Source: Folioceros fuciformis (lineage: Eukaryota). From it: DNA of 64,000 bases. Within the stretch, counting starts at the first letter, position 1. Each line of letters begins with the position of its first letter. This document shows, piece after piece, positions 15,401-50,900 of this stretch. The stretch covers positions 153,434-217,433 of the forward strand of contig JBNGIO010006284.1 in NCBI GenBank assembly GCA_049999805.1, written 5' to 3'. The notes beneath the pieces are model-generated. The model was not told the origin of the DNA. It saw nothing but the letters and a program-made list of their open reading frames with translations, and made no database searches. The position numbers and the translations under genes were made by a program.

Positions 15401-18400
15401 GAAGTTGCCTCCAACGCTGAATGCCAAGAGATACTGAGCTGTTACACAGAGGGTAAAGATAAACTCGAAGCAGGATCTTCAGAGGAAGAAGGCAGACATG
15501 ATCAAGGGCTGACCGAATCCAGCGATGAAGACAGTATCACGAGTTTGAACCCAATTCAAGCAGGAGCAGAGTCATGGCAGAGGAGCCAATCTCCAAAATC
15601 AGGAGAACACATGGATCACAAAAACGATGTTAGAAGTTCACAAGCTGGACCTACAATCCCGCAGGTTGACGGTCAGTATGATGAGCAGAATGACATTGAT
15701 ACTAAAGGGGCTCCCTGCTGCTCTGGAGATCGACCCATGGAGACAGAGACCCCTGAGTTGACCATAGACCTTGATTCTATGTCATCCAGTCACCCACAAT
15801 TAGTGCGTGCATCTTCTTTGCACCCCCCAAAGGGTCTGAAGAGGAAAACCTCGTCAATCTTACAAACCTCCAAACTTCCAGCTGTCAGGGCCACCAAGCC
15901 ACAGGTCTCCTGGTGCACTTTGCCTGTAACTGGCGTGGAGACTGCGTCAGCAGCATCAGGGCACAAAAGTGAGGAACGGTTGCCTTCTGGGAAGGAACTT
16001 TCGAGGCCTTCCATTGCTGAAACAGGACTCTGTGGGGAAACGTCAAAATTGAATCCAGAAAGGAGTTCCTCCTTACGTGCTTTAATGAGGCGACGTCGGG
16101 GAAGAAAGCGAAAGCAGCGGGAAGCTGGGCATCAGAATGAAACCAGCATGCCTGTGGATGCTACTGAGCCTAAAAGAATTGCTGGGATGGAGGTGAGTGG
16201 GAAGAGCGACGAGATGGAACAAACGCTGACTGGCAAGTGGGATACGGGACTAGCTGACAGAGGTGACAACCGAGACTGTGGCGGAGGACAGAAACATGAT
16301 GATGGTTCTGTTTTGGGTCAGGAGGGTGCACTTAGTTTGCGGGAACCAGCCCTTGAAACTGGCTATGTACATAAGTTCAGTTTGCTGAATACTTCATGTC
16401 TTCCAGAGGACCAAGAAAATCTGTCTTTTGGATTTAAGTCCACTCTAAAAGGGGACAACAGGGTGGATCTAAGACATGATGAGCTGCCGTTTGTTGGCAA
16501 CCAGTTTTCTGTGTCCGACACTGTTTGTTTTCATGATGTGAAAAACGTTAAGCTTCGCACAAGGGGAGAGGGCCATGAACACTCTACAGATAGGGAGAGA
16601 TGTGTTTCAGAAGATTTTTCGCCAAGGAAGGTTTGTGAGACATTAAAACAAGCAGTTTGCTACTCTAACAACCCTGGTGGTGACGTATCAGTTGTGTTCA
16701 AGAAACCACAAACCCAGTGCCGCTCTTTCGGTGGTGCCCAGCATGGATCTGACCATGAGGCGTCAACATCTACTTTTGTTTCAAACGCTGATTCAATCTC
16801 ACTGCAGAGTCTGAAAATGAAGTCTGAGAAAATGGAGACTGCCCACCCCAAGACTCAGCTTGATAGAACAGGGAAGGTGGATTTAGAGCCTTGCCCTGGT
16901 GAGTCGTCTTTTGAGCTTGGCCTTCAAGTACCTGCAGGACACGTCCCTCCAGCAGAATCAGATGAACAAAGGGATGGTGAGAAGGATCTTGCAGAATGTA
17001 CACCGAAGCAAGATTGCGACAGTGATTCATGGTGGAGAAAAGGTCGCTCGTCATTGATGAGCTATTCCACACTGCCGGTTTACCAGGATGATGCAAGTGA
17101 AACTCTCTACTCTTTACGATATAACAGGAAGCCACCAAGCCCAGCTCACTGCCTCGACACTTTTTCCAACCATGGTCTCAATTCAGAAGAGCATGGCACA
17201 GTCTTTTTTGGAAATGTCAAGGATGTATCGGCTCAGCCCACGGTCATGGCTGGTTTAGTATTTCACTGTGAGTAGTACGCTTGAATTTTGAGTCAATGCT
17301 GCTGATTTTCTTTTAAAGGCAAGTCATCTCACACAACTTCTAATTTGCTGCAGGGAGGTCAAAGGAAGGTGTGCATTTGCCGCCATTCCTTTTTGGATCA
17401 CCAGGGAAAGTGAGCAGATCTGAGCAAGCATCTAAGGAAAGGGAATATGTGGAGACGGAGCTCTGGGGTCTACAGCAGGGTGGAGATGGTAGAATGGGAG
17501 TGCCCGTGCACTTTGAAAATGATGGGAGCATGTTCTACGTCCTGACACCGGCCCGAAGTCCTCCCTCCTGCTCAGCCGTTCAGGACTGGCTGCAGCAGAA
17601 GACGTCAAAAGGTGGTGATGGCCCTGGCAAGAAAGACAAACAAGTTTTCACCGTGGATCCGAATACAGGAAAGCTGGTTGCACTTGAAGGTGATGCACAA
17701 ACCCAGACGACCCAGTCGTTCACTCAAGGATCCCTGGAGGATAATGAGTACTACAGACCTGCATCGCCAAAGTATGATGAGAAGCACGTGCTGACTGTGC
17801 CTTTCACTTCCACTGATCACCATCTTGCGGCCTTGTCTGTTGATAAGAATTTATCTGTACAAAGACTGGGTGGGAAGATGCCCCCAGATGTTAACACGAA
17901 AACCCACAACCCAGGCAGTAATGAAGGCCTGCTGAATGCTCAGGATGAAGTAATTGGAGGTGAAGAGAATCAGGGCGCCAAAAAGGATCATGCCAGTTCC
18001 ATAGTCCTTGGTGAAGCTATTGATACAACGAAGGATATTGCAAAGCTTACCCGACAATGGCGTGATGTTTCACAAATAACAGCCCCAGTCATCACAGCAG
18101 CTCAGATAACCCCTCTCAGTCAATCTGGATTTCGAGATCCAGCAAGTGAAGGTGGTGGTCAGCAACTCACTTTGGCAAGCATAGAGGTCAGACATGTTTG
18201 CAAGGACTTGACTGGTGCGTGTTGCTTAATTGCCATCTTGCTGAGTTAAAGTGTTTCGCATTTCAGATCTATGTACAGACCAGAGGAGATTTGCGACCTG
18301 ACCCTAGATATGATGCGATCGGCTGCATAATTATAGTGTTTCAAGATGACCATCAGAACCGAGAACAGACTACGTTTGTTTTGATTAGAGATGAAACTTG

Positions 18401-22159: not shown

Positions 22160-25100
22160 TCAAGACGGTTCACCCAGTCCTCCCATCGTTTTGGAGCGAA
22201 CATGATGAAACCTCGCACCGTCATCTTCACTGTCGAAATGTATTTTATCTATAACCAGGAAACCATGCACAACTCCGTCCATGTCTGTCCACCAGCTCTG
22301 ACCTGGCTGCTTCCACGCTCTGACTCTTCTCCTCCTTTCCTGCATCTCTTTTGCCTGCTCCCACATTTGGGCACTTACGTATATGTTCGCCATTAACACA
22401 TATGCTGCAGCATCACTTTTGTCCAAATTCATTGCTTCATCGAAAGCATGGCATCCTACCTCTACATTACACCACTTTCGACAAGCACCTAAGAGAGTGT
22501 GCCAAACTGCTGCATCAGGCAGTGCAGGCATTCTCCTTACCAAAGCTAGTGCCTCCTCAAGGTGGCCTGCACGACCCATAAGATCTACCATGCATGTGTA
22601 GTGCTCTGCTGTCGGAGTAACGCCATAATGGGTGCTCATGGCATCAAAATGCTCGAGCCCCTTACGCACCAGACCTGCATGACTGCATGCTTTCAGAACA
22701 CTCAGGAATGTGATGCCAGTGGGTTCTACACGATGCTCGCGCATTTTATGAAACAAGTCAGAGACCACAGCACCGTTCCCCTGATCCGTGTAGCCTGAGA
22801 TTAGCGCGTTCCAGGCTACAATGTCTTGTTCAGCCAACTTATCAAAGACCTTTTGTGCATCAACCATGCTCCCAGACTTTCCATACATGTTTATCAAACT
22901 TACAGCTACTAGCACATTGCTGTCCAGCCCTTGTTCTTCAATCTGCGCATGAATCTTTCTTCCCAGATGTAAAGCAGCTACATTTGCACATGCTTGCAGG
23001 AGGCACACAAATGTCAAAGTATCCGGTGCAACAGTGTCTTCTTCATGCATAGCCCGGTAGAGAGATAGGGCTTCGAGGTCCAATCCCTGCTGGGAGTATC
23101 CTGTTATCATGGCATTCCACGTCACCACGTCTTTCTGGGTAAGCCTGTCAAACATCTTCTGAGCATCTCCCAGGCTGCCACACTTGGCATACATATCTAC
23201 CAAACTATTGGCTACCATCATATCAGATTGAAGACCTAGTTCTCTGATTTGCGCATGAAGCTGCTTGCCCTTCTCCAAAGCTGAGATGCCTACACATGCA
23301 CATGCTTGTAGGACGGACACACAAGTCATGGAATCTGGCGCAACCCTTCCTCCTTCCATAGCTTTGTGAAGGCGAAGGGCTTCCTCGCCCATGCCCTGCT
23401 GCGAATGTCCTGCGATCATGGCATTCCACATCACGACATCTTTCTCAGAGAGCCTGTCAAATATTCTTTGCGCATCTTCAACCTTCCAGACTTTGCGTAT
23501 CCTGCTAATAGAGTGGTAGATGTAACCATATTTTTCTCATCAAGTCTGTAGAACACATGCTCAGCGTCCTCTAGGCTTCCACACTTTGCGTACATGTCGA
23601 CCAAGCTGCAACTAATAACAGCGTTAACCGTGAGTCCTAGTTCTTCAATCTGTGCATGAAGCTGTTTCCCTTTCCGCAAAGCTTGGACACCCAAACTTGC
23701 GCATGCCTGCAGAAGAGATACGTATGTTACAGGATCTGGTACAGCAATGCCCTCATCTTGCATAGCTGTGTAGAGATGAAGGGCTTCCTGACCCATGCCA
23801 CGCTGGGCGTATCCTGCTATCAAAGCTGTCCATGTGACCACATCTTTTTTATCAAGATCGTCAAATACTCTTTGCGCATCTTCCAAGCTGCCGCACTTGC
23901 TATACATGTTCACCAAACTGTTGGCTACAAACACATCAGATTGCAGGCCTCGTTCTCTAATATCCCACTGCATGTGCCTTCCCTTCTCCAAAGCAAGGGT
24001 GCCTACACTTGCACACGCCTGCAGAAGGCACACAAATGTCACAGAATCGGGTGCAACAGTGCCTACTTGTTGCATCGCTCTGTACAATAGAAGAGCTTCC
24101 TGCAGCATGCCCCGGTGGCAATACCCTGCAACCATAGCATTCCATGCCGTCACATTCTTATGGGTAAGGCCGTCAAACACACCCTGGGCATCCACTAGGC
24201 TGCCACACTTCAGGTACATCTTCACCAGACTGCAACCTACAACAACATCAATCTGAAGTCCTCGTTCTCCAATAAGTGCATGCAGCTGTCTACCTTTCTC
24301 CAAAGCAGGAGCGCCCATACTTGCACATCCCTGCAGGAGGCACAAAAAGGTCACACAATCGGGTGAAGCCATATCTTCCTCTTGCATAGCACTGTAAAGC
24401 CTGAAGGCTTCTTGCCATAAGCCCTGCTGACAATATCCTGCGATCATAGCATTCCACGACACTATATCCTTATGGCCAAGTGCGTCGAACACTCTACGAG
24501 CATCATCCAAACTGCCACACTTCGCATACATGTCCATCAAGGAATTCCAAACAAACAAATCAGGCTCGAAACCATCAACCCCACTGGCTAGCACATAAGC
24601 ATGCACCTGCTGCCCAGCTTCCAAATCCGATTCCCTTGCACACGCTTGAAGGGCTGCGACATATACATGCCCATCGGGCTTCACACTTGACCTGCCCATC
24701 TTGTACAAGTCTATCGCCTGCTCAGCCAGCCCCTGGTTCACATAAGCAGAGATTATGGAGGACAACATAAAAGCATCTGGCTTGGCAACCACAGCAAAGA
24801 CAGCCATCGCTTCGTGCAACCTACCATGAGAAGAATACATTCGAATGATGTGGTTGCACAAGGATGTGTCCAACTCGTACCCCTGCTCGACAATGAGAGC
24901 ATGAACACGGCGACCCAGAGCCAGATCCCTCTGAACCACACATTTCTTCAGGACAGTATAGAAAGCAGATGCAGTTATACTACTCCCTGTCTGCACCAGA
25001 ACTCCCAGACCCTCAACAGCCTCAGTGTCCTGCTCCTGCTTACAGAGTTGTCTCACGCTTTCATCCGATACGGCTCTTTGATACTCTGCAGATCTGTCAG

Positions 25101-25446
25101 GGTCACGGTCACGACCCGTCCGCATTTCCATAGCAGACAATTCCACATCACCCCAAGATGGCTTGCACAGGGACTCTGTATGCCAGAAGCCCCGAGAATA
25201 CACCCTGTGTTCAAATTGCCTGCTGTGCCCCCAAAGCGTATGGTCCAGAGAACACCGTCGACAAAGGAACTCATGCCGTCTACCCTCCCCAGACAGGAGG
25301 CATTCTCGTGAGTGGTATGAAGGCGGTGCAAGGCTTCCCCCACTGGAGGCAGCCTTGCTCCGTAACTTTTCCCACCTTGAAGTCAGGCCAGTGGGCCTTA
25401 TCCTCCGGGACCTGTAATCCCACCAATGCTTTCTCCAAGCATCCAT
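22160..25446 (-). pseudogene. PLS-class PPR protein (PPR-1), WW-type E+/truncated DYW, split by a 1-nt frameshift at ~23479
   Basis: ORFs 23431-25446 and 22160-23434 join into a continuous P-L-S array if one base is restored; ends AWKQPGQSWWTDMDGVVHGF. Confidence 0.85.
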
Positions 25447-25872: not shown

Positions 25873-25972
25873 NNNNNNNNNNNNNNNNNNNNNNNNNNNN
25901 NNNNNNNNNNNNNNNNNNNNNNNNNNNNNNNNNNNNNNNNNNNNNNNNNNNNNNNNNNNNNNNNNNNNNNNN
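25873..25972. other. Assembly gap (100 N)
   Basis: N run; gagtaatggat repeated on both sides. Confidence 0.99.
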
Positions 25973-30731: not shown

Positions 30732-33700
30732 TCACCAGCATGCCCATTCCCTCGCTTTTAAGTCACAGTCGAGAGCCGGAGATGAGGGCTCGGGAGCCTC
30801 TCTCGTCATTTCAGAGACGAGCTGTTTCAGTCTGGCATATATGTGTTCAATCTCAGGATGCCTCGTGTCCCCAACCACAAAACTGTGAACCAGTCCTGCA
30901 TTGTCTGTCCACCAGCTTCGGCCTGGCTGCTTCCATGCTCTGATTCCTATTCTCCTCGCCTGCATCTCCTCTGCCTGCTCCCACATGAAGGCATTTGTGC
31001 ATATGTTTGACATCAAGACATACGCTGCAGCATCTTTCTCATCTAGCTTCACTGTTTCATCAAAAGCATGGCATGCAACCTCAACGTCATCCCACTTTTG
31101 ACAAGCACCCAACAGAGTGCGCCAAACAGCAGTATTGGGCAGCACAGGCATCGTCCTTATCAAAGAAAGTGCCTCGTGGATTCGGCCTGCCCGCCCCAGG
31201 AGATCCACCATGCATGTATAGTGCTCTACGGTGGGAGTGATGCCAAAGTATCTGCTCATAGCCTTGAAGTATTCTTGCCCCCTGGTCACCAGACCTGCAT
31301 GGCTGCACGCCGTCAGTACACTGAGGAATGTGATATCGGCTGGCTGTATGCCATCTTCACTCATTTTGTGAAACAAGTCCAAGACTCCTGCAGTGTCCCC
31401 TTGACGGGCGTAACCTGCAATCAGTGCATTCCAGGCCACATCATCTCTTTCGGGCATTGCATCAAATACTTGCTGCGCATCAACCATGCTCCCAGACTTC
31501 CCGTACATGTTTATCAAACTGCTGGCTACGAGCACATCAAATTGAAGGCCATGTTCTTCGATGTGTGCATGCAGCTGCCTTCCCAGATGCAAAGCCGCTA
31601 CATCTGCACATGCCTGTAGCAGGCACACAAATGTCACAGAATTGGGTGCCACAATGCCTTCGTCTTGCATAGCACCATAAAGACGAAGGGCTTCCAGTGC
31701 CATGCCCTGCTGCGAATAGCCGTTTATTATGGCAGTCCACGACACCACGTTCTTTTCATGAAGTCCGTCAAATACGCCCTGGGCATACTCTAGGCTGCCA
31801 CACTTTGCATACATGTCTACCAAACTGCTGGCTACAACTACATCAGATTGAAGCCCCTGTTCTCTGATTTCTGCGTGAAGTTGCTTTCCCTTCTCCCAAG
31901 CTGGGTTGCCAACATTAGCACATGCCTGCAGCAGAGACACAAATGTCACAGAATCAGGTGCCGTGATACCTTCTTTTTTCATAGCCAAGTAGAGATGAAG
32001 GGCTTCCTGACCCATGCCCTGCTGGGAATATCCTGCTATCATGGCATTCCACGTCACAACATTCTTTTGACCCAATCCATCAAACACTTCCTGGGCATTT
32101 TCTAGGCTGCCACACTTTGCGTACATGTTCACTAAACTACTGGCTACAAACACATCGGGTTCAAGTCCTCGTTCTCTAATTTGCGAATGAAGTTGTCTAC
32201 CCTTCTCTAAAGCCAAAGTGCCTACACTTGCACATGCCTGCAGGAGGCACACAAATGTTACTGAATCTGGTACAGCCATGCCTTCTTGTTGCATGCTGTT
32301 ATATAGATGAAGGGCTTCCTGGCCCATCCCCTGCCGAGAATAACCTGCTATCAAAGCAGTCCAGGTCACAACACTTTTTTGACCAAGCCCACCAAACACG
32401 ATCTGAGCATCTTCCAAACAGCCACACTTTGCATACATATTTACAAGGCTGAAACCTAGAATCTCACCGACGTCAAGTCCTTGTTCTCTAATCTGTTCAT
32501 GAAGTTGCCTCCCCTTTTCCCAAGCCAGGGGACCAATACTAGCACATGCCTGCAGGAGAAACACAAACGTCAGAGAATCAGGCATGGCACCGCCTTGTTC
32601 TTGCATTGCACTGTAGAGGCCGAGGGCTTCGTGAGCCATTCCCTGCTGGGAATATCCTGCTATAAGAGCTGTCCAAGTCACCACATCTTTTTGACCAAGT
32701 ACACGAAAAAGTCGTTCAGCATCTTCCAAGCTGCCACACTTCACATACATATTTACCAAACTGTTGGCTACAAATGTGTTTGATTGTAATTGTTCCCTAA
32801 TTTGTGCGTGAAGCTGCCTCCCCCTTTCCAAAGCTGGAGGGCCCATACTGGCGCATACCTGCAGCAAGCAAGAAAATGTCACAGAATCAGGTGCAACAAT
32901 GCCCTCTTCTTCCATAGCCCTGTAAATGCGAAGGGCTTCTGAGCTACTTCCGCGGTGAATATACCCTGCTATGAGAGCATTCCATGTGACCACATTTTTC
33001 TGCCCGAGACAGTCAAAGACACGTTGAGCATCTTCCGGGCTGCCACACTTTGCATACATGTTGACCAGGCTGCAACCTACAATAGCATCGACCTTAAACC
33101 TTAGCTCTCCAATACGTGCATGAAGCTGCTTCCCATTTTCTAGAGCGACGGGGCCCAAACTTGCGCATGCCTGCAAGAGAGACACCAGTGTCACGGCATC
33201 CGGTTCAACAATGCATCCTTCTTGCATAGCACGGTAGAGAGAAAGAGCTTCCTGACCCCTGCCCTGCTGTGCATATCCTGCTATTAGAGCAGTCCACGTC
33301 ACCACATCCTTGTTGCACAGTCCATCGAAGACTGTCTGGGCCTCTTCCAAGCGGCCACATTTTGCATACATGTTTACCAAACTGTTGGCCACACACACAT
33401 CCGCTTCATGACTACGTTGGATGATCTGTGCATGAAGCTGCTTCCCCTTCTCCAAACCCGGGACGCCCACGCTTGCACAAGCCTGGAGAAGGCACAAAAA
33501 AGTCACAGTATCAGGAGAAACCGCGCCTTCTTCTTGCATAGCACCGTAGAGACAAAGGGCTTCTTTGGCCATGCTCTGCTGGGAGTACCCGCCTATCATG
33601 GCATTCCAAGTTGACACATTTTTTCGACCAAGCCCATCAAACACACTCTTAGCGTCCTCCAGGCTCCCACACTTCGCATACATGTTTACCAGGTTGCATC

Positions 33701-34454
33701 CTACAACAACATCGACCATAACTCCTCCTTCACCCATCTGTGCCGCTCCCCACACGTCAGCATGCACGTGCTGCCCAGCTGTCAAGTCCCTAGCCCTTGC
33801 ACAAGCTTGAAGAGCTGCTGCAAATACATGACCATCTGGCTTCACACCGGACTCGCGCATGCGGTGATACAACCGTATGGCCTGCTCAGCCTCTCCATGG
33901 TTGACATGTGAAGAAATTATGGATGACCACATGAAAGCATCTGGCTCCTCAACCCAGGTGAACACATCCATCGCTTCCTGCAACATGGCATGAGAAGCAT
34001 ACAATCGCATGATATGATTGCACAAGAACGTGTCCGAGCCGTACCCCCGCTCCACCATGAGAGCATGAACACGGCGACCCAGAACCAAGTCCCTCTGCAC
34101 CACACACTTCTTGATGACTGCGTAAAATACAGATCGAGCTATGAGACAATCCGTCTGCACCAGCACTCCCAGAGCCTCAACAGCCTCACTGATCTGCGCT
34201 TGCTGGGATAGCCGCGTCACGGTTTCAGCAGTCACTCCTTGGACACACCCTGCAAGCGTACGCTCATCCGGGGAGTCCGACGCAGGGTGCATACCCGGTC
34301 CGCACCTTGGGGTGAGACAACCACCAGCTTTGTTCCTGGAGAATGTGGCATTCCACCCATATTTCGCTCCCGGGAACGCAAGAGCTGTAGCTCCAGGAGG
34401 CCCTCTGCGTGTGTGATGTGCGACGCGGCAGGCAGCAATCACTCGCACAAGCAT
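30732..34454 (-). CDS. PLS-class PPR protein (PPR-3), WW-type E+, DYW truncated
   Basis: Long P-L-S array; AWKQPGRSWWTDNAGLVHSFVVGDTRHPEIEHIYARLKQL; stops just before the HxE position. Confidence 0.94.
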   Translation of the reverse strand: MLVRVIAACRVAHHTRRGPPGATALAFPGAKYGWNATFSRNKAGGCLTPRCGPGMHPASDSPDERTLAGCVQGVTAETVTRLSQQAQISEAVEALGVLVQTDCLIARSVFYAVIKKCVVQRDLVLGRRVHALMVERGYGSDTFLCNHIMRLYASHAMLQEAMDVFTWVEEPDAFMWSSIISSHVNHGEAEQAIRLYHRMRESGVKPDGHVFAAALQACARARDLTAGQHVHADVWGAAQMGEGGVMVDVVVGCNLVNMYAKCGSLEDAKSVFDGLGRKNVSTWNAMIGGYSQQSMAKEALCLYGAMQEEGAVSPDTVTFLCLLQACASVGVPGLEKGKQLHAQIIQRSHEADVCVANSLVNMYAKCGRLEEAQTVFDGLCNKDVVTWTALIAGYAQQGRGQEALSLYRAMQEGCIVEPDAVTLVSLLQACASLGPVALENGKQLHARIGELRFKVDAIVGCSLVNMYAKCGSPEDAQRVFDCLGQKNVVTWNALIAGYIHRGSSSEALRIYRAMEEEGIVAPDSVTFSCLLQVCASMGPPALERGRQLHAQIREQLQSNTFVANSLVNMYVKCGSLEDAERLFRVLGQKDVVTWTALIAGYSQQGMAHEALGLYSAMQEQGGAMPDSLTFVFLLQACASIGPLAWEKGRQLHEQIREQGLDVGEILGFSLVNMYAKCGCLEDAQIVFGGLGQKSVVTWTALIAGYSRQGMGQEALHLYNSMQQEGMAVPDSVTFVCLLQACASVGTLALEKGRQLHSQIRERGLEPDVFVASSLVNMYAKCGSLENAQEVFDGLGQKNVVTWNAMIAGYSQQGMGQEALHLYLAMKKEGITAPDSVTFVSLLQACANVGNPAWEKGKQLHAEIREQGLQSDVVVASSLVDMYAKCGSLEYAQGVFDGLHEKNVVSWTAIINGYSQQGMALEALRLYGAMQDEGIVAPNSVTFVCLLQACADVAALHLGRQLHAHIEEHGLQFDVLVASSLINMYGKSGSMVDAQQVFDAMPERDDVAWNALIAGYARQGDTAGVLDLFHKMSEDGIQPADITFLSVLTACSHAGLVTRGQEYFKAMSRYFGITPTVEHYTCMVDLLGRAGRIHEALSLIRTMPVLPNTAVWRTLLGACQKWDDVEVACHAFDETVKLDEKDAAAYVLMSNICTNAFMWEQAEEMQARRIGIRAWKQPGRSWWTDNAGLVHSFVVGDTRHPEIEHIYARLKQLVSEMTREAPEPSSPALDCDLKAREWACW

Positions 34455-34743
34455 CCCAATAACCTGCGGACTCAAGCTTTAACACAAAACCACACTCAGT
34501 CACGGCATCGGAGCCAGTGCCACAGACGCTTGAGTCCATATCCGCATGCACCAGCACAGATGCGCTGCATACAGTAGTCCTTCTCATACACCAGGCCACG
34601 GACTTTCACGGAGTCCTGGGCTAGAACGTGAAGAAGAGCTTGCAACCATATCCAAAATCAATCTGACCACCATGGGAAGGAATGGTAGGATCCAAAAACA
34701 AATTCAAAGCGTTGGATGGAGATGTCAACGGATAGTGTAATCA

Positions 34744-35400: not shown

Positions 35401-36168
35401 AAAAAGAAAAAGAAAGGGAAGCAGATCCCTAAACTTTAGCTCATCAATGTGGCCTGTAGCCAAATCAGTGTATCAAAGCTTTGGAACCGAAATCCTGGAA
35501 CTTTGGCTCGGAGCACACCAATGTATGGACTGTTGCTGGAGCAGCTGCCAAGTCCTGGTATGTAGGCACTTAGGCAACAGGCCACGGACGCAGTTGGACG
35601 TCCTGGACTTCAATCAATGCACTGAAGAACTTGTAGCCACATTGAAAATAGCATGAGTTCCATGGACAGAACAGGAATGAAGACTTGAAGCATTCTACTT
35701 GGTGGCCTGGACACAGGCACGATGCGGGCAACGAAATTCGAACCCAAATTGTTTTATTGAGAACTGGGTATCTAACCATGTAACCTGCACCAGATCTGCC
35801 CCCTGGGTTGCCATCTGGCTTGACAACCTGGTCTCCAGATTCGCATGCTGCGTGTCTGACTTTGCAGCTCTCCAGACAACCATGTTTACAATCTTGGAAC
35901 TTTGGAAATTGGAATGCTTATCGCTGGGAGCATGCAGGCTTGAGGATGTTGAGTTTTGTCGTTTTTTTGTCTTTTGGCAACTTGCCGGGACAGCAGCAGC
36001 GCGCAGCAGCAAGCAATCCATCCAGCAGGAGCAAATTCCCTGTGGTTAGGTTGTTTTTGTCTACTTGTCCAAGCATCATGTGTGCTGGACGATCTCTTCC
36101 GAGTAGCAACGGAAGTGCAAGGGTGTGTACAGGAGACACAGGTTCAGGTTCACCGTGTGCTTCCAAAA

Positions 36169-39100
36169 ATGATGGTTGCTTGCCGCGTTGCACTCAACTC
36201 ACGGAAAGGGCGAGGGCCTCTTGCGGGGACAGCTCTCGTGACCCCGACAAGCCGAGAATGGTGGGATGACGGGTACAGTAAGGAAAGCTTTGCAGGGCTA
36301 ACGTCAACCCGCGAATCGGGTGACGCTGTGTGCACGTTATGTGAGCAAGGGCAGGTCGATGAGGCTGTCGAGGCTCTGGGAGTACTAGTGCAGACAGACT
36401 GTGGAATCTGTCACTCTCTCTTTTACACAGTGATCAGAAGCTGCATGCTTCGGAAAGATCTGGTTCTGGGTCGCCGTGTTCATGCTCTCATAGTGGAGCA
36501 GGGGTATGAGTCTGACACGTTCCTGTGCAACCAGGTGCTGCGAATGTATGCTTCCCTAGCCAGGTTGCAAGAAGCTGTGGATGTGTTTTCTCTGGTCGTC
36601 AAGCCAGATGCCTTCATGTGGTCTTCCATGATGTCTGCACATGTCAACCATGGACAGGCCAAGGATGCCGTAGAGCTGTACCATCATATGCGTAGGTCTA
36701 GTGTGAAGCCAGATGGGCATGTTTTTGTGGCAGCCCTTCAGGCTTGTGCTAGAGCACGGGACTTGAGAGCTGGGCAGCAGGTGCATGCTGATGTGTTGGC
36801 TAGTGGCGGTGAGCCTCACTTGTGTGTCAGCAATGCCTTGGTGGACATGTATGCAAAGTGTGGCAGTTTGGGAGACGCTCAGAAAGTGTTCGACGGGCTC
36901 GGTCAGAAAGATGTGGTGACATGGAATGCCTTGGTAGCAGGGTACTCCCAGCAGAGCATGCTGCAGGAAGGACTTCGTCTCTACAGGGCCATGGAAGAGG
37001 AAGGCATGGTGGCCCCAAATTCCGTGACGTACGTATGCCTCCTGCGGGCATGTGCAAGTTTGGACACCCAAGCGTTGGAGACAGGGAAGCAGCTTCATGC
37101 ACAGATCCGAGAACGGGGCCTTCAAGATAATGAGTTTGTGGCCAGCAGTTTGGTACAGATGTATGCAAGATGTGGCAGCCTGGAGGAGGCTCAGCGAGTT
37201 TTTGGTGAATCCGGTAAGAAGGATGTTGTCACCTGGACAGCTCTGATTGCAGGGTACTCCCGGCAGGGAATGGGTGAGGAAGCCCTTCATCTATACAGTT
37301 CCATGGAAGAAGACGGTATTGCTGTACCCAACACTGTGACATTTGTGTCTCTCCTGCAGGCATGCGCGAGCGTGGGTACCTCAGCTTTGGTTCAGGGGAA
37401 AGAGCTCCACGCACAGATTGGCCAAAGAGGACTCGAAGCTGATGCCTTTGTAGGCAGCAGTCTGGTGAACATGTATGCAAAATGCGGCAGCTTGGAAGAT
37501 GCGCGAGCCTTATTTGACGGGCTTCCACAGAAAGATGTGGCTACATGGAATGCCATGATCGCCGGATACTCCCAGGAGGGCATGGGCAAGGGCGAGGAAT
37601 CCCTTCGACTCTACCGCACTATGCAAGACGACGATATTGTTGCCCCCAATTCTGTAACTTTCGTGTGCGTCCTGCAGGCATGTGCAAGTCTCGGCTCCCC
37701 GGCATTGGAGGAGGGCAAGCAGCTGCATGCACAAATCGCACAACGAGGACTTGAAGAAACAGACTTGGTTGTAGCCAACAGTCTGGTTAACATGTATGCA
37801 AAGTGTGGCAGCTTGGAAGATGCTCAAAGAGTATTCGATGGACTTGGTCAGAAAGATGTTATAACGTGGGCCTGTTTATTAGCAGGATACTCCCAGCATC
37901 GCATGGCTCAGGAAGCACTTCATCTGTACAAAAGCATGCAGGATGACGGCATTGCTGTACCCGATTCTGCAGCATTTTCGTCACTGCTGCAGTCATGTGC
38001 AAGTGTAGGCATCCCGGCCTTCGAGGTTGGTAAGCAACTTCATGCGCACATAGGGGAACGAGGCCTCCAGGACGATGCGGGTTTAGGTTGCGGTCTGGTG
38101 AACATGTATGTCAAGTGTGGCAGTTTAGAATTAGCACAAAGGGTGTTCGACAACATGAGCGAAAAGAATGTTATGCTGTGGACTGCTCTGATATCAGGTT
38201 ACGCACAGCAGGGCAGAGGGCAGGAGGCGCTTCGTCTTCACCACGCTATGAAAGAAGAAGGATTGTCCACCCCCGACGGTTTCACGTACGCCTGCCTGCT
38301 GCAGGCATGCGCCAGTGTGGGAACCCCGGCTCTGGAGGCAGGCCAGCAGCTGCATGAAGAAATTGAGGACGACGGGTTTCAAGGTGACGCGTTTGTAGCC
38401 AGCAGTTTAATTAACATGTATGCAAAGTGTGGCAGCATGGAGGACGCGCGGTGTGTGTTTGACAGACTTGAAGACAAGAATGTTGTGATATGGAATGCCA
38501 TGGTAGCAGGCTACTCCAAGCAAGGAATGGGCCAGGAAGCGCTTGATCTTCACGGTGCTATGCAGGCGGAAGGCATACCTGACTCTGTCACGTTCGTATT
38601 CCTTCTACAGGCATGTGCAAGTGTAGGCAGCACCGGTTTGCATAGAGGGAAGGAGCTTCATGCGCAAGTTCGAATAGCAGAACTTCAAGATGATGCCTTC
38701 GTGGCCAGTAGCTTGATAAACATGTACTCGAAGTGCGGCAGCCTGGAGGATGCTGAGGACGTCTTCGACAGAGTTGCCGACAAAACTGTAGCGACTTGGA
38801 GTGCCATGATCGCGGCATACTCCCAGCAGAGCAGAAGCCAGGAAGCACTCCGCCTTTACAAAACCATGCAGGCAGGCGGCGGTACGGTCACCCCAGATTC
38901 CGCCACATTCTTGTGCCTCCTCCAAGCCTGCGCAAACACTGCAGATCTGCATCTGGGAAGGGAGCTACACGCGCAAATCTCACAGCAAGGGCTTCAACAC
39001 GACGTCCTCCTAGCCTCCAGCCTCATCAACATGTACGGCAAGTCCGGCAACATGATTGCCGCACAGCAAGTGTTTGACGCCATGGAAGAAAGATCCGACG

Positions 39101-39699
39101 CCGCCTGGAACGCGCTCATCGCCGGCTACACTCGACAAGGATCCAGCTCCGAGGTCTTCACCTCGTTCCAACGAATGCTGGACGACGGGATCCAGCCAGC
39201 CGGCGTCACCTTCCTCCACATCCTCACGGCATGTAGCCACTCCGGGCTAGTGCAGCAGGGGAAAGAATACTTCAACGCCATGACGAGCCTTCACAACCTC
39301 ACTCCCGGAGTGGAACATTACACATGCATGGCGGACCTCCTCGGCCGCGCCGGCCACCTCCACGACGCCTTCACTCTGATAAGCACCATGCCCGTCCCTC
39401 CGTCCCCCGCGTCCTGGCGCGCCCTCCTCTCCGCCTGCCAGAAATGGCGCAACGTGGACATGGCGCGCCGCGCCTTCGACGCCGCCGTGCAGCTGGACGA
39501 GAAAGACGCCGCTCCCTACGCCCTCATGGCCAACATCTACCGGTCCGCGCACATGTGGGAGCAAGGGCAGGAGATCCAGGCCCGGCGAGTGAGCGCCCGG
39601 GCGTGGAAGCAGCCGGGGCAGAGCTGGTGGACGGACATGACCGGAGAAGTGCACACTTTCTCAGTCAGCGGGTGTAAGGCTGAAGGCCAAGTCGGGTGA
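36169..39699 (+). CDS. PLS-class PPR protein (PPR-4), WW-type box, DYW truncated
   Basis: Long P-L-S array; ends AWKQPGQSWWTDMTGEVHTFSV; first in-frame ATG 36169. Confidence 0.94.
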   Translation: MMVACRVALNSRKGRGPLAGTALVTPTSREWWDDGYSKESFAGLTSTRESGDAVCTLCEQGQVDEAVEALGVLVQTDCGICHSLFYTVIRSCMLRKDLVLGRRVHALIVEQGYESDTFLCNQVLRMYASLARLQEAVDVFSLVVKPDAFMWSSMMSAHVNHGQAKDAVELYHHMRRSSVKPDGHVFVAALQACARARDLRAGQQVHADVLASGGEPHLCVSNALVDMYAKCGSLGDAQKVFDGLGQKDVVTWNALVAGYSQQSMLQEGLRLYRAMEEEGMVAPNSVTYVCLLRACASLDTQALETGKQLHAQIRERGLQDNEFVASSLVQMYARCGSLEEAQRVFGESGKKDVVTWTALIAGYSRQGMGEEALHLYSSMEEDGIAVPNTVTFVSLLQACASVGTSALVQGKELHAQIGQRGLEADAFVGSSLVNMYAKCGSLEDARALFDGLPQKDVATWNAMIAGYSQEGMGKGEESLRLYRTMQDDDIVAPNSVTFVCVLQACASLGSPALEEGKQLHAQIAQRGLEETDLVVANSLVNMYAKCGSLEDAQRVFDGLGQKDVITWACLLAGYSQHRMAQEALHLYKSMQDDGIAVPDSAAFSSLLQSCASVGIPAFEVGKQLHAHIGERGLQDDAGLGCGLVNMYVKCGSLELAQRVFDNMSEKNVMLWTALISGYAQQGRGQEALRLHHAMKEEGLSTPDGFTYACLLQACASVGTPALEAGQQLHEEIEDDGFQGDAFVASSLINMYAKCGSMEDARCVFDRLEDKNVVIWNAMVAGYSKQGMGQEALDLHGAMQAEGIPDSVTFVFLLQACASVGSTGLHRGKELHAQVRIAELQDDAFVASSLINMYSKCGSLEDAEDVFDRVADKTVATWSAMIAAYSQQSRSQEALRLYKTMQAGGGTVTPDSATFLCLLQACANTADLHLGRELHAQISQQGLQHDVLLASSLINMYGKSGNMIAAQQVFDAMEERSDAAWNALIAGYTRQGSSSEVFTSFQRMLDDGIQPAGVTFLHILTACSHSGLVQQGKEYFNAMTSLHNLTPGVEHYTCMADLLGRAGHLHDAFTLISTMPVPPSPASWRALLSACQKWRNVDMARRAFDAAVQLDEKDAAPYALMANIYRSAHMWEQGQEIQARRVSARAWKQPGQSWWTDMTGEVHTFSVSGCKAEGQVG

Positions 39700-39716: not shown

Positions 39717-39816
39717 NNNNNNNNNNNNNNNNNNNNNNNNNNNNNNNNNNNNNNNNNNNNNNNNNNNNNNNNNNNNNNNNNNNNNNNNNNNNNNNNNNNN
39801 NNNNNNNNNNNNNNNN
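39717..39816. other. Assembly gap (100 N)
   Basis: N run. Confidence 0.99.
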
Positions 39817-42730: not shown

Positions 42731-43957
42731 AGGAGAAATGCACCGCTGCGCGCGGCGATCCCTTTGTGCCCGTAGGCGGGCGAATATTCCTTCTCTGGGT
42801 GGCTCTTGGTGCAGCTGACCGCCGTCAGTACGGCGCCAGTTCAGGCTGTCTGTGAGAGTCTCGGTTCACATCTTAAACGGATCTGTAGTAATCTGGCCCT
42901 CTTCTCGTGTCATGCCGACATGCTTGGTGCAGGCCTTATTGTGGGGACATGAAGTATGGTTGGCGCTGAAGAAGGAAGCATCAGTGCATGTAACATATGG
43001 TTTTCTTTCCTGTCTCTGGGAAAGCCAGGAGTGTGAGGAATCTGGTTGTGAATATGTTGAAGGGGATGCCAGATCAAGCCCATGAAGGAATGACAACAAC
43101 TATAATCGCTCTGCGCGCACTTGGAGTGAGCTGTCCGAGTGAGCAGTAGTCGCTGTGTTTTCCAGTAACATCTCATCTCAGGCATAGCCTCATTTGTACA
43201 TTTCAGTGTTCGAAGTGTGAAGGTGCGTGTTCTTCTCTCCCGACCTTTCTTGGAAGAGTAGAGAAAAGAGGTTGGGTGTACAGTTTTGCGACGCTTGGAG
43301 AGGGCATTTGGTATCTTCTATCTTGGATACCGCAGCTTGCAACATGTATGATAAATAAGTCGTGGCCTCTTTCCGTGACACTTTCTCTTCTCTGAATGCC
43401 TTCATTCTTTGTTACGGAGCGAACTCTGCTCCACAATGTTGTTCACTCTCTCCTCATATGTCGAGAATGCTTGTTGCCAGAATGTACAGAAAGCCTGGGA
43501 GAAGCTGCGTAGCGTGTTTCCCAGTTGCCCAGTTTGTCCTGACATAGAGAGCATATTTGGAACGTGACAAAGTCATACAACGACTATACTAAACCTGCAG
43601 CGTTGAAGAGCCGGAACCTAGCCCAGACTGTGCACCACGTCCCCTTGCTGATGTCACGAGCAGCTGGACGGTAGTTTGACCCTCTTTCTTTCCTTTAGCT
43701 ATCCTTGACCCTTTCTCTTGGCCCGCAGCCATACAAGAAATGGTGAAATAATCAATGCTTCCAATTTTCCAGCCAATCTGCAACAGACGGCAAACAAAGA
43801 TGTTGCTTCGAATTCATCATCCCGATCCACTACACAACCAAAGGGCAAATTTCGAAGAGGCAGAGAAAAATGGAGCACCTGGAAAGTGTGGGACAACGGC
43901 CCTGGAGGTTCGTGCAGATAAGAGCCCGATGGCAGATTGGATGACGCAACTTGCGTG

Positions 43958-46900
43958 TCACTGGTTATCCCCACATGAACAGAAACCATCCACGAAATGG
44001 TGGACGGAATGCGCATCTCTAACTATGATCTCCCTCTTCTCAATTCTTGACATAATCTTGGTGCCGCTGTGGCAGTCATCACACATCCGCAGGTTCTTGG
44101 TGACCAGCAACGTTGTGCCGTCTGGTGTGTTCAAGAGCCCATACGCTAATGCCAGTTTCTCAGCATGGCCACACAGGGCATCCTCCTTCTCGCTGTCAGA
44201 CAACGGCTTCAGCACCAAGTGTGCGTGGGGTACATGGCCTCCTTCCTGCTTCAATCGTAAGTTCACATTCGAAAGCTTTGAGGAGATGTCTTCCCTTTCT
44301 TCCCCCACCGTGAAGCCGTGGGCCTTTCTGTTCACCTCAATCCACGCCTTCGCTGGCTTCTTCCGAGCACCTGCTGCCTTTCTCAGCTTCTCTACCGCGT
44401 CCACATCCTTCCATCTGCCGGCACTTCCGTAAATGCTTGCCAAAAGCACGTACGCTGCTGCATTCTGAGGGTCCATTTCCACAAGAGAGTCGAAACAGCG
44501 TCTTGCGCGCTCCATGTCCCCATAGCTTTTGCAGGCAGTCAGCAGAGATGTCCAGCCGGCAGCAGCATTCTGGAAAGGCATTGTTCTCAACAGCTTCTCT
44601 GCCTCGTCTAGATGCCCGGATCTGCTCAGGAGATTAGCCATGCAGTTGTAGTGATGCACGGAGGGGGTGATGTTGTAGTCCTCCTCCATCGTCTTGAAGA
44701 GGTTCCGACCCTCCTTCACCAGGCCCTCGTGACTGCATGCTGCAAGAAGGCAGATGAAAGTGGCGTCGTTAGGCTGCACACCCTGCTGCTGCATCGCTCG
44801 GAAGCACTGTAACGCATTTCGACCATCTTTATGTTGCCCGTATCCATTCAGCAGAGCAGTCCATGTCACCACGTTCCTGCTCTGCAAGCTCTCGAAAACT
44901 CCTTGGGCTTCCTTCAGGCTGCCACACTTTGCATACATGTCCACCAGGCTGCTCCCGACAACCGCATCGCCTTCCAGTCCCCTTTCTTGAATTCGTGCGT
45001 GTATTTGCTTTCCCTGGTGTAACGCTCCGATGCTGGCACATGCCTTCAAGAGGCACACGTAGGTAACAAGGTCTGCTGGCGTGAGGCCCTCCTCTTGCAT
45101 GCTTGTGTACAGATCGAGGGCTTCTTGACCAAGTCCTTGTTGGGAGTAGCCTGCAATCATGGTAGTCCATGTGACCACATCCTTGAACTGTAAAGCCTTG
45201 AAGACTGCGTGAGCATCTTCCAGGCTTCCGCATTTTGCATACATGTCCACCAGACAGTTCCCAAGCACCGCATCGATGTCGATGCCTCTTTCTTGAATCT
45301 GCAAATGAATGGCCTGGCCCGCTCGCAATGCTCCGATGCTGGCACAAGCTTTCAGGAGGCACACAAAGGTGACACGATCCGCTGGAGTCCATCCCTCCTG
45401 CTGCATGCTAGCGTAAAGCTTGAGGGCCTCTTCACCAAGCCCATGCTGTGCATAGCCTGTGATCATGGTGGTCCAGGTCACCACGTCTTTTAATGGCAGC
45501 TTGTCAAACACTCTACGAGCATCCTCGAGGCTCCCACATTTTGCATACATGTCCACTAGGCTGTTTGCAACCACCATATTTGCTTCCAGCCCTCGTTTCT
45601 TAAGGTGCCAATGGAGATCTGTACCTTCCCGCAAAGCTCCCATGCTAGCACAGGCTTTGAGTAGGCAGACAAATGTGACATGATCAGCAGGAGTGATTCC
45701 CTCTTGTTGCATACTTTCGTACAGAGCCAAGGCTTCTGAAGCAAGCCCCTGCTGCGCATATCCTGTTATCATGGCAGTCCATGTCACCACATTTTTCGTA
45801 GGCAACCTGTCAAAGACGCTGCGGGCATTCACTAAGCTGCCACATTTGGCATACATGTCTACCAGACTGCTGCCTACGACCACATCAGTTTCCAGGCCCT
45901 TTTCTCGAATCTCGGAATGAAGTTGCTTTCCATGATTTAGAGCTCCAACACCAGCAGAAGCTTTCAGGAGGCACACCAAGGTAATCTTGTTGGGAGAGGA
46001 GATGCCCTCGAGCTGCATACTTGCATAAAGATTGAGGGCCTCCTGACCAAGCCCGTGCTGGGCGTATGCTGCAAGCATGGCATTCCAGGTAACAACATCT
46101 TTCGTGTGCAGTCCTTCAAACACACGATAAGCATCCTTTAAGCTCCCACATTTCGCATACATGTCCACCAAGCTGTTTCCAACAAACAGATCAGATTCTA
46201 ATCCTCTGGCCTGAATTTCGGAATGAAGTTCCTTCCCTTGCCGTAAACCCCCAATGCTAGAACAAGCCTTCAGTAATGACACATACGTGACAGGATCAGC
46301 CAGGATGGTGCCCTCCTTTTGCATACCAGAATATAGGGAAAGGGCCTCTTGCCCGAGCCCATGCTGAGCGTACCCTGTGAGCATCGTATTCCACATCACC
46401 ACATTTCTGGTAGGCCAGCTGTCAAACACTCTACGAGCATCCTTCACGCTTCCACATTTTGCATACATGTCAATGAGACTGCTGCCCACATACACGTTCA
46501 GATCTTCAACACCCTCTAAGACATCTGCATGAATTTGCTTTCCAGATGCCAAATCGGCTGCAGTCGCACATGATTTAAGCGCTGCCACAAATACATGATT
46601 GCTTGGCTTCACGGGGGACTGCCTCATCAGCTGATAGAGCCGAATCGCTTGAATTGGCTGATTGTGTTCCGCGTGTGCTGAGATGATGGAAAACCACATT
46701 GACGGGCTTGGAGCATCCAATCTTGTGAACACCTCTGCCGCCTCCTGCAAATTCCCATGAGAAGCATACATGCGGATGATATGACTTGCCAAGAATTTGT
46801 TCGATTGGTAACCATTTTTAAGAGTAAGGACATGGATAAGCCTGCCAACATCCCCATCTTTCTGGGCAGTGCACCTTTTAAGAACACGAGAAAACAGAGA

Positions 46901-47665
46901 CGCAGGAACAGACGATCCTTGGCTGACCAAGCGGTCCAGTGCTTCTACCGTCTCATGCAGTTTTCTCTCTTCACACTCTGTACTCCATAACCCAACCCTT
47001 GAAGCCTCTTCATCCCTTGCAACCCTGCAACATCATGATGACTGTCAGAACAACTGGGTTCTCTTTCGAGGCAGCACAGTCATATGGAAGATGGTGCTCA
47101 AAAGGGGAGAGGAGGATTAGACCTGCAACTGCTCTCCCAATCCGAGAACCCGTCGTCAGAGGATGCCTTCGACCTACTAATAGTCTGTGGTGGTAGAAAA
47201 AAATCCTCCTCCGTTCTGCTGGGATTGCAGTTCCTCTGAAATGCCGCACAGCTTTAGATCCCCTCTCCACCGATACACAGAACAAATTAATTGCGTCTAC
47301 GTCAGATAGCTACACAACAATTGCTGGGCATCTGATTTACCTGAACCGTATTTTGCAACCACTGGGAGGGATCGGTTTCCCACAATGCGTCCCTTGCACT
47401 TCGCTCGCCTGCAGGCCAACTTCATGTAAGATTCTGCCACCACATCGGCTGAAACTGAAAGCAAAGGCCACGTGAACTCCGTCCACATAGGCCATCACTC
47501 ACCGGGCCACGATGCATGATTGCGTTGCTCCGCTGCGCCCTGCAATGCTGATATGTACCTGCACCAATCCTCCACAGGGCCGCGAGAACTGGGTTTGATT
47601 AATATCAGGTTGGATAGAGTAAGACTACCGCCTTTCAGCATTTGTGCTGGTTCCCCCCGGCACAT
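43958..47665 (-). CDS. PLS-class PPR protein (PPR-5) with complete DYW:KP-type deaminase-like domain; candidate U-to-C editing factor; exons ~47665-47503, 47408-47341, 47235-47123, 47024-43958
   Basis: 23 P/L/S motifs, E1, E2, KPAKAWIEV, LCGHAEKLALAYGLLNTPDGTTLLVTKNLRMCDDCH, CSCGDNQ*; three 94-105 bp GT-AG introns with matching phases 1/0/2; start codon uncertain. Confidence 0.93.
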
Positions 47666-47998
47666 GCAACTCAGGAGCACCAGATCTCAGATTCAGGGGT
47701 AGACACGCTTCTTATACACAATTCCAGGGCCATAGCTAGCCGAGGCTGAATTCGAGTAGATGTATCCATATGTCCCGGTAAAGGGGAAAAAACGCTGCGT
47801 GATTGGAAACGGCCCACCAACTGGATCAGCATGCCGCACGCCTGGAACTGCGACTTCAGCCCTTCAGGGAGGACCTGGCACAAGCTTCAGATCGATTTCG
47901 CGCCAGAAGCCGAAGCTCCAGGTCCAGGGAAATACGTATACTCAAGAGTATGCGAACATCCGTGAAGCTGGACCTGCTGTCTCACAGCAGAAATAGTG

Positions 47999-50900
47999 AT
48001 GTTGTTGAAGGCAGTTCCTGCTACAAGTTCAGACAAAAGGAATATTCTAATTGCAAGGAGAGACCTGTGCTTGGGGATTCAGGCCTTACAAGAGGTGGAT
48101 GGCGATGGTCCTAATGTGAATGTGCAACCAGCAAGACTGAGGGAGTCAAAACTGGCCTTGGCTGCTGGCAAGGCCATTTGGTAAGCCTTATGTGCATTGT
48201 TGACTAGGAGTGTCTGCTATACATGCCAAGGTCAAGTGCTCTCTAAGAACCAAATGCTTCTGATTCTCTGCTCACAGGGCTGAGAGTTCGGGAGGTGGAT
48301 GTGCACTAAGAAAATCTTGCGACGATGGGCGGCTGGAAGGGGAATTGGATGCACTTTTGCTTATGGACCAGCGTGGCATTGTGCCTTCGGTGCAAATGTA
48401 TAAGCACCTTTTGCAGGCTTGCATAGCAAAAAAAGACCTGAACGAGGCCAGGAAGGTGCATGCTCATATAGCAAAGAATGAGTTGGAGTCCGACAGATTT
48501 TTGGGTGAGTGGATTGTCAACACTCTTGTCAGTTGTGGAAGCCTTGAAGAGGGGCTGCAGGTGTTTCAAAGGTTGTTGCACCCAACTACCTTCGCTTGGA
48601 CATCTCTTATCACTGGGTATGCAAAGGCTGGACGATGTCGAGAGGCTTTATCAGTGTATCAGTGGATGCAAGAAGAGAGTCCACGGCCTAACAAACATAT
48701 GTTGGTCTGCTTACTGAAAGCTTGTGGCAAGTTGAGAGATTTGGTTAACGGCAGGATGATTCATGCCAGCATAGTCAGAGACAGATGGGAGTTTGATGTA
48801 TTTGTGGGCACAGCTTTGCTTGACATGTATGCAAAGTGTGGGAGCCTTTTGGACGCACGGTATGTGTTTGACAAACAGCCTGAGCGGAACGTTGTATCCT
48901 GGAATGCTATGCTTGCAGCATATAGTCAACATAACAGGGGAGAGAAGGCTTTACAGCTATATGATCAGATGCAGAAGGAAGGTGTCTCTCCAGATGATAG
49001 AACATTTGTCAGTGTGCTTCAAGCATGCAGTAGCATGGCTGAAGAGGAGGAGGGAATTCTATTAGATGGACAATGCTTCAAGGTCCACTCGCTGAGAAGG
49101 GGGAAGGCAGTACACGCTGCAGCTGCCCGGAAGGGTTACGAGGGAGATGTATTTGTTGTTACCACTCTGGTTAGTATGTATGCCAAAAGTGGGAGCATCA
49201 CAGACGCCGAGCAGCTGTTCAATCGCATGTCATTCCGCAACGTGGTCTCATGGAATGCAATGCTTTCAGGATATGCGCAGCAGGACCAAGGAGAGACGGC
49301 TTTACGACTATATCTCCAGATGCAACAGAATTTCGTGATTCCGAACGATCGGACCTTTGTTAGTGTGCTACAAGCATGTGGCAGCCTTGCAGAGAAGGAG
49401 GAAGCATGGTTGATTGATGGGCAGTTTGTGAAAGTGAAAGCACTACGATGTGGGAAGGCAGCACACGCGGAGGCTGTTTCCAAGGATCATGAATCAGATC
49501 AATTCATTCGCAACGGCCTGATCAGTATGTACGCGAAGTGTGGGAGCATGGTGGATGCGCAACAGCTGTTTAATAGATTCCCCAAACGGGATGTTGTAAC
49601 ATGGACAGCCATGATTGATGGATATACCCAGCAGTCACTAGGAAAGAAGGCTTTACAGCTTTTTGATTTGATGTCTTCCGTTGGCGTTGCTCCAGACGAC
49701 AGGACCTTTATCATTGCGCTCCAAGCCTGTGGAGTCCTGGCAGAAGAAGAGGAGTACTTCCTTGTGGACGGACATTCTGTGAAGCTGGAGTCACTGCAAA
49801 GGGGGAAAACAATCCATGCAGCTGTTCTTCGTAGTGGTTACGAATCAGATGAGTTTGTTGCTAGCACTCTTGTTAGCATGTATGCAAAATGTGGGAGAGA
49901 GGTTGATGCAAAACTTGTGTTCGGAACAGTGGCCAAATGCAATGTAGTTGCCTGGTCTTCAATGCTTGCAGCATACGCTCAACGGGATCAAGGAGAGAAA
50001 GCTCTGCAACTTTATTGCCAAATGCAGGAGGCAGGCGTGCATCCAAACAAGAGGACATTCGTCAGTGTGCTCCAAGCATGTGGGAGCCTTGCTGAGAAGG
50101 AAGATTCTTCTTTTGAACAGGCAAAATACATAAAACCGGATTCGTTGATCCGAGGAAAGGCTATGCATGCTGAAGTTGTCAGGAGGGGTCTTGAATCCGA
50201 CGTATACGTGGGTAACGCTCTCATCAGTATGTATGCAAAGTGTGGAAGCATGATCGATGCCCAGCATGTGTTCGACAGACTTCCCAAGCGCAATGTGGTG
50301 TCATGGACTGCCCTGCTTTCAGGGTATGCCCAGCAGGATCAAGCAGAGAAGTCCTTGCAACAGTACGCCCAGATGCAAGCTGAAGGTTTGAAACCAACTG
50401 CGATCACATATGTGTGCATACTGCACGCCTGCAGCTCCATAGGTGCTCTGAACCACTGCATCCAGATCCACCGTGACATTCTAGAGAGTGGGTATGAGAC
50501 TCATCCACATGTAGCAACTGCCCTGGTTCATGCATATGCGAAGAGTGGCAGCATGTCAGCTGCTCGAGCGATGTTTGACTCACTCCCCCTGCACAGTCTC
50601 CGGTCATGGACTGCTCTGCTTGCCGGATATGCCCGACATGGGCAATATGAGTCCAGCCTGCAATGTTACCAAAAACTGTGTCTGCAAGGCATGGAGCCAG
50701 ATGGCGTCACATTCCTTTGTCTCCTGTCTGCCTGCAGTCATGCTGGCATGGTTTGTCAAGGCTTGGAGTACTTCAGGCTTATGACCACGCAGCATGGCCT
50801 GGCTGCTGGCATGGGGCACTACATGTGCGTCCTGGACCTTCTAGGCCGCGCAGGAGTCTTCCACAAGGCAGAGGAACTGCTTCTACAAATGCCATTCCAG

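Follow-up and report, generated by a model that had tools for sequence, protein, structure and literature searches.

A candidate DYW:KP-type RNA editing factor gene of Folioceros fuciformis and the RNA sequence predicted for its repeat array

The locus and its predicted product

This analysis concerns a pentatricopeptide repeat (PPR) gene on a 64,000-nucleotide stretch of Folioceros fuciformis DNA (assembly GCA_049999805.1, contig JBNGIO010006284.1, positions 153,434 to 217,433 of the forward strand), referred to throughout as the window and numbered from its own first letter. The gene was listed as a stop-free open reading frame (ORF) of 990 codons starting at TTG, at 43958..46930 on the minus strand; the nearest stop 5′ of this TTG is 34 codons upstream, and the stop-free frame starts at 47032. 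Contigs of four sequencing runs were compared with positions 43000-48400, and those of the two DNA runs, X1 and X2, which likely come from the source sample, showed 0 differences from the gene in the window. As judged from its sequence, it is apparently an intact nuclear gene encoding a PPR protein of the PLS class that ends in a DYW:KP domain. The parts of the main exon are as follows, with contacts counted from the edited base and with the residues at position 5 and at the last position of a motif given as its pair.

43958..47024, minus strand: main exon, from the complete PPR array through E1, E2 and the DYW:KP domain to the stop codon
46496..46903, minus strand: N-terminal motifs L (residues 10-44), S (45-75, pair SS), P (76-110, pair FS) and L (111-145), outside the code read in the original prediction
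44768..46495, minus strand: decoded span, five S-P-L triplets followed by S-P2, predicted contacts -22 to -6
44564..44767, minus strand: L2 (pair IS) and S2 (pair NA), expected opposite -5 and -4
44360..44563, minus strand: E1 (pair TN) and E2, from the Pfam E_motif match and the division into motifs
43961..44359, minus strand: DYW:KP domain, 133 residues, starting KPAKAWIEV, carrying the zinc/catalytic motifs HAE and CDDCH and ending GDNQ

Pfam comparison of the protein returned PPR families (2.5e-116 and 3.1e-111), the E_motif at residues 803-865 (5e-18) and DYW_deaminase at residues 898-989 (7.5e-35). When the protein was divided into motifs at its regular anchors, the order L-S-P-L, five S-P-L triplets and S-P2-L2-S2-E1-E2-DYW emerged, with P, L and S motifs of 36, 35 and 31 residues, P2, L2 and S2 motifs of 35, 36 and 32 residues, as in the PLS class, and E1 and E2 as two motifs of 34 residues.

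DYW:KP domains have been distinguished from PG-type domains by a KP pair that replaces PG in the N-terminal box, an Ala or Cys in place of the Ser that follows the catalytic His, a variable C-terminal tripeptide and a conserved Lys88 (PMC11845758); they are 132-133 residues long and lack the xHP residues of PG domains (PMC11845758; PMC9478123). The domain studied here starts with KPAKAW, carries HAE (within GHAEKLA) where the PG-type structures 9kfx and 7o4e carry HSE, ends in DNQ and is 133 residues long, with a four-residue gap just after the box relative to both PG structures. Its Lys88 is the K of TKNLR, as counted from the K of the KP box on the assumption that the numbering of the designer protein KP6 applies (both domains are 133 residues). 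Over the whole domain it aligned with 9kfx (1.9e-66) and 7o4e (1.1e-34), with HxE, CxDCH and CSC conserved.

The closest relationships of the domain are with the two named hornwort KP variants, DRH and GRP (PMC9478123). Identity to KPAK/HAE proteins ending in DRH or GRP was 66-78% (means of 70.6%, n = 5, and 70.8%, n = 3), and averaged 45.0% to 60 DYW-tailed domains. In a quick maximum-likelihood tree of 122 domains (IQ-TREE), the query fell into a group of 13 rows with DRH- and GRP-tailed proteins (SH-aLRT, the Shimodaira-Hasegawa-like approximate likelihood-ratio test, 92), itself nested in a group of 52 rows made up of non-DYW-tailed HAE and HCE domains (SH-aLRT 93). The description of the product as a KP protein in the original prediction was thus borne out, both by every one of the sequence features named above and by the grouping with DRH and GRP proteins.

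A further run from the same organism, X3, which we guess to be RNA, gave contigs that match 43000-46782 with 0 differences at very uneven depth (125 down to 5.6) and left 46801-46981 uncovered. One X3 contig, followed along the strand of the gene, matches 48179-47502 and then 47235-47122, with 67 unmatched letters of its own in between, while the DNA contigs run continuously through the stretch where it is split. Together with the open frame, this contig points to the following 5′ structure.

47503..47665, minus strand: inferred first coding exon, ATG at 47665, the exon continuing to at least 48179 as 5′ leader; from the X3 contig and the open frame
47341..47408, minus strand: inferred exon B, 68 nucleotides, the only AG..GT segment of the right length found by eye
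47123..47235, minus strand: inferred exon C, from the X3 contig piece on 47235-47122
47502-47409 (94 nucleotides), 47340-47236 (105 nucleotides) and 47122-47025 (98 nucleotides), minus strand: inferred introns, all GT..AG

The spliced model has 1137 residues, its ATG at 47665 is in frame with the PPR ORF, and the other two frames are closed. Its third junction, from exon C to 47024, rests on splice signals and the open frame, the last 15 letters of the contig being unmatched. We consider this 5′ model, in which the first exon and the position of exon B are deduced and which restores an in-frame ATG, likely. From the same single contig of the probable RNA run we infer that the gene is expressed with spliced 5′ exons. 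In tblastn comparisons of the N-termini of homologues with the upstream DNA, matches were confined to the frame of the main ORF. The first 30 residues of the model include 15 that are Ser, Leu, Lys or Arg and one that is acidic; transit peptides are rich in Ser, Leu, Lys and Arg. A one-base frameshift after ATGATG at 47036-47031 was also considered and was dropped in favour of the acceptor at 47025, because the X1 and X2 DNA contigs show 0 differences there.

Two further observations concern the ends of the gene. At the 3′ side, a single X3 contig of 1377 nucleotides covers 43000-44078 at a depth of 125, as compared with 5-30 across the remainder of the gene, and the DNA runs are flat around this region at a depth of about 10-19; the downstream region 43000-43950 yielded no convincing ORF. 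The high-depth contig may represent an abundant 3′ untranslated region or else a transcript of its own, which could be non-coding or overlap the gene. At the 5′ side, the inferred leader exon, which reaches at least 48179, comes to within about 170 nucleotides of the start of a divergent PPR ORF at 48345, and the two genes would have a very short intergenic region in common.

The PPR code and the predicted target

According to the published PPR code, N at position 5 specifies a pyrimidine and S or T a purine, while D at the last position specifies U or G and N specifies C or A (PMC12733224). From the second S motif (residue 146) to P2 the pairs read SN ND/ND NN/SN TD/ND TD/ND TD/SN TN, in S-P order with the intervening L motifs left out. 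Application of the rule gives the predicted cis-element 5′-AUnUYnAGnUGnUGnAA-N5-[U]-3′ with S2 at -4; the Y stands for the pair NN, which the rule strictly equates with C and which is usually read more loosely. The base aligned with S2 is placed at -4, the edited base being the fourth nucleotide 3′ of it (PMC12733224), and L2, S2 and E1 are aligned with -5, -4 and -3 (PMC9478123). For S2, with N at position 5, this would favour a pyrimidine at -4, and for E1, with the pair TN, an A at -3; a purine at -2 and a pyrimidine at -1 may be added to the prediction (PMC9478123). The pair list of the original prediction is identical to the one obtained by our independent division into motifs, its RNA pattern is correct by the published rule, and its register agrees with what these two papers describe; the interval 44560-46500 given for it corresponds to the second S motif through S2 (46495-44564).

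The further claim that the code is unusually clean was not supported. Standard pairs occupy 12 of the 15 P- and S-type motifs (13 if SS is counted), and the span in which all pairs are canonical omits SS, FS and NA. As a baseline, the P and S motifs of homologues were parsed with hidden Markov models trained on the motifs of this protein, and the resulting fractions are approximate, since the parser returns TD instead of TN at P2 and passes over the first P: canonical pairs made up 270/326 in KP-like HAE proteins, 128/154 in KP-like HCE proteins and 426/475 in the PG type. In KP-like homologues, then, about 83% of pairs are canonical, and at p = 0.83 a run of 12 out of 12 is expected with a chance of about 0.11, i.e. 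once in nine. Among KP-like proteins with at least 10 P and S motifs, 4 of 33 were fully canonical, the query counted; in the eight neighbouring PPR ORFs, 69 of 100 pairs were canonical.

The array itself is internally repetitive. Its five central triplets are 58-72% identical to one another as protein and 64-73% as DNA, and Tandem Repeats Finder reports a 306-nucleotide period at 45024-45900 with 73% matches. Part of the cleanness of the code is therefore due to consensus-like repeats rather than to selection on this gene, and both the recurring ND-TD pairs and the UGnUGn of low complexity look, from the sequence, like the product of consensus-like, internally duplicated triplets.

The pattern specifies 12 positions, half of them in the low-complexity UGnUGn run. 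With the window as a null and T required at the edited place, the pattern was matched 0 times at 0-1 mismatches, twice at two and 36 times at three; the total of 38 matches with up to three mismatches compares with 39.3 ± 5.8 in shuffled sequence. The two-mismatch count, obtained over 128,000 positions, corresponds to about a dozen chance matches in 800,000, and in organelle genomes of several hundred kilobases a match would have to contain no more than one mismatch to be distinctive genome-wide. As a sole criterion the pattern is too short to single out one place in a genome, and two-mismatch matches would be meaningful only when limited to experimentally called U-to-C sites.

In the mechanism that we consider likely, the protein would be imported into the plastid or the mitochondrion, where its P and S motifs would read about 12 bases of one transcript, AUnUYnAGnUGnUGnAA, at -22 to -6. 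L2, S2 and E1 would then be positioned over -5 to -3, and the DYW:KP domain, with its zinc site HAE...CDDCH and Lys88, would turn into C the U that lies four nucleotides 3′ of the base aligned with S2. Consensus-designed KP domains do perform U-to-C editing, with S2 at -4 (PMC9478123; PMC11845758), and a proteinase treatment ahead of RNA extraction is reported to be required for this editing to be observed (PMC11845758). For the natural protein we infer organelle import, U-to-C activity and the existence of a matching site.

Competing readings and relation to known editing factors

Taken together, the features described above lead us to put at roughly 0.6 the probability that the locus is an active gene for a hornwort-type DYW:KP editing factor whose array would read one organellar transcript for U-to-C conversion. 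Several observations weigh against this. The listed ORF has no ATG until codon 54, and its rescue by upstream exons hangs on a single contig, which leaves the third junction uncovered and comes from the run that we guess to be RNA. Three motifs carry non-standard pairs (SS in the first S, FS in the first P and NA in S2), that of S2 being unusual. Protein searches found no orthologue: the best full-length identity was 54%, the best over the array 56%, and none exceeded 65% over residues 600-990. Likewise, among 221 homologues none had the same code, the maximum being 8 of the 12 predicted bases shared at any register. As of February 2025, natural KP proteins were described as being without demonstrated activity or target, assays having been confined to consensus designs (PMC11845758), and our literature searches, as judged from titles and the beginnings of abstracts, brought up no later natural KP protein with a validated site. 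Finally, editing in the C-to-U direction is also seen with the designer protein KP6 (PMC11845758), and the direction of the reaction is therefore uncertain for a natural protein.

Some of these points could be accounted for by a young or redundant paralogue, or a 5′-truncated pseudogene, that has no editing site of its own and whose clean code stems from duplicated consensus-like triplets instead of selection. The start of the listed ORF, with no early ATG and a stop 34 codons upstream, the 58-72% identity of the central triplets within their 306-nucleotide tandem array, and the failure to find a same-code orthologue or homologue among the 221 proteins would all fit such a history, as would the position of the gene among nine clustered PPR ORFs, one of them seemingly split by a frameshift. 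However, the main exon retains 990 stop-free codons and all catalytic and zinc residues, the spliced model reaches an in-frame ATG through three GT..AG introns with the other frames closed, and the probable RNA contigs match 44050-46782 with 0 differences, so that we regard a non-functional or redundant copy as unlikely. It is more improbable that the gene encodes an active factor working C-to-U, or in both directions, with a C as its cognate site. KP6 carries out both reactions in human cells, where single substitutions switch the direction (PMC11845758), and DNQ is neither of the named hornwort tails; nevertheless, the domain has the Lys88 on which U-to-C editing by the designer proteins depends and falls with DRH and GRP proteins, apart from PG domains, and in Anthoceros agrestis the count of full-length KP proteins follows that of U-to-C sites (PMC12548569). 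The least probable of the readings considered is binding of organellar RNA without editing, for stabilisation or processing, or service of several related sites. It would be compatible with the small number of specified positions and the low complexity of half of them, and with a moss editing factor that has two native targets and showed more than 100 off-targets in E. coli (PMC10482289).

Returning to an active U-to-C factor, the strictest form of the proposal is that a natural KP protein with a so far unreported DNQ tail and the odd pair NA in S2 acts as a single specificity factor for one U-to-C site fitting AUnUYnAGnUGnUGnAA. We advance this version only tentatively, with rather more doubt than belief.

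The protein resembles the hornwort DRH and GRP DYW:KP proteins in its PLS array followed by E1-E2, its domain of 132-133 residues, its KPAKA box and its HAE. It differs from them in the DNQ tail, and the tree draws as an open fork the order in which it and the DRH and GRP tails branch; both subgroups were described for A. agrestis by Gerke et al. 2020 (cited in PMC9478123). With the designer editors KP2, KP3 and KP6 it has in common the order (P1L1S1)n-P2-L2-S2-E1-E2-DYW:KP, the placement of S2 at -4 and Lys88, but those are consensus designs built from three triplets and directed against a site of Arabidopsis, whereas the present protein is natural, has more triplets and has an activity that is predicted. 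Like the DYW:PG C-to-U factors (OTP86, PDB 7o4e; a synthetic PPR-DYW protein, PDB 9kfx), it has a deaminase-like domain with HxE and CxDCH; unlike them, it has KP instead of PG, HAE instead of HSE, four fewer residues after the box and no DYW tail, and the reaction expected of it is the reverse of their C-to-U conversion.

Matching KP proteins to U-to-C sites by code is established practice, credited to Gerke et al. 2020, who are cited for a good fit between the two (PMC9478123), and the gene, one of many full-length KP proteins that the literature describes in hornworts, adds a candidate and not a principle. U-to-C editing is nevertheless the least understood plant RNA editing reaction. A natural factor whose code is clear and whose site has been identified would be a useful test case and would help to explain how hornworts maintain hundreds of such edits. 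If the proposal is correct, knockout or a heterologous assay would yield one of the first validated pairs of a natural KP protein and its site, and would tell whether U is aminated by natural KP domains unaided.

The PPR cluster and the rest of the window

Together with eight other long PLS-class PPR ORFs, the gene forms a cluster of nine at 22160-57539, on both strands. Pfam comparison gave no DYW_deaminase match in any of the eight neighbours. In six of the eight the C-terminus is of the E+ kind, with a PG box (WKQPG-like in five; also KTPGH) and a truncated domain, while a seventh has a truncated remnant alone and the ORF at 23431-25446 has none. Among themselves, seven of the eight show identities of 49-68%, the ORF starting at 48345 being an outlier at 37-40%, and the KP gene is 39-53% identical to its neighbours. 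The E+ subgroup has been described as enriched only in hornworts (PMC13386178), and A. agrestis as having many full-length KP proteins and only a handful of PG-type DYW domains (PMC12548569). One full-length KP protein among PLS proteins that lack a DYW domain is the mix described for that species (PMC12548569).

The minus-strand PPR ORFs 23431-25446 and 22160-23434 overlap by 4 nucleotides in different frames, and the first ends within a P motif; by sequence, 22160-25446 looks like a single E+ gene, about 1095 residues long, that has been split by a frameshift, either as a pseudogene or through an assembly indel. The divergent ORFs 30732-34475 (minus strand) and 35956-39699 (plus strand), both of 1247 residues and 60% identical over about 1205, look like an old inverted duplication.

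Away from the cluster, an intronless UNC-93 gene occupies 9513-11087, with an identity of 59-60% to moss and liverwort proteins, 53-56% to those of ferns and 45-50% to those of seed plants, and of 78% to its top match, in one assembly. Read together with the KP and E+ proteins, these values fit a bryophyte outside the mosses and liverworts, most likely a hornwort. At 1e-5, Pfam gave no match for the ORF at 15251-17275 (plus strand, 674 residues) or for those at 14454-15209 and 17371-18249. Assembly gaps, each a run of exactly 100 N, are found at 25873-25972, 39717-39816 and 62996-63095, the second of them starting 18 nucleotides past the end of the ORF at 35956-39699.

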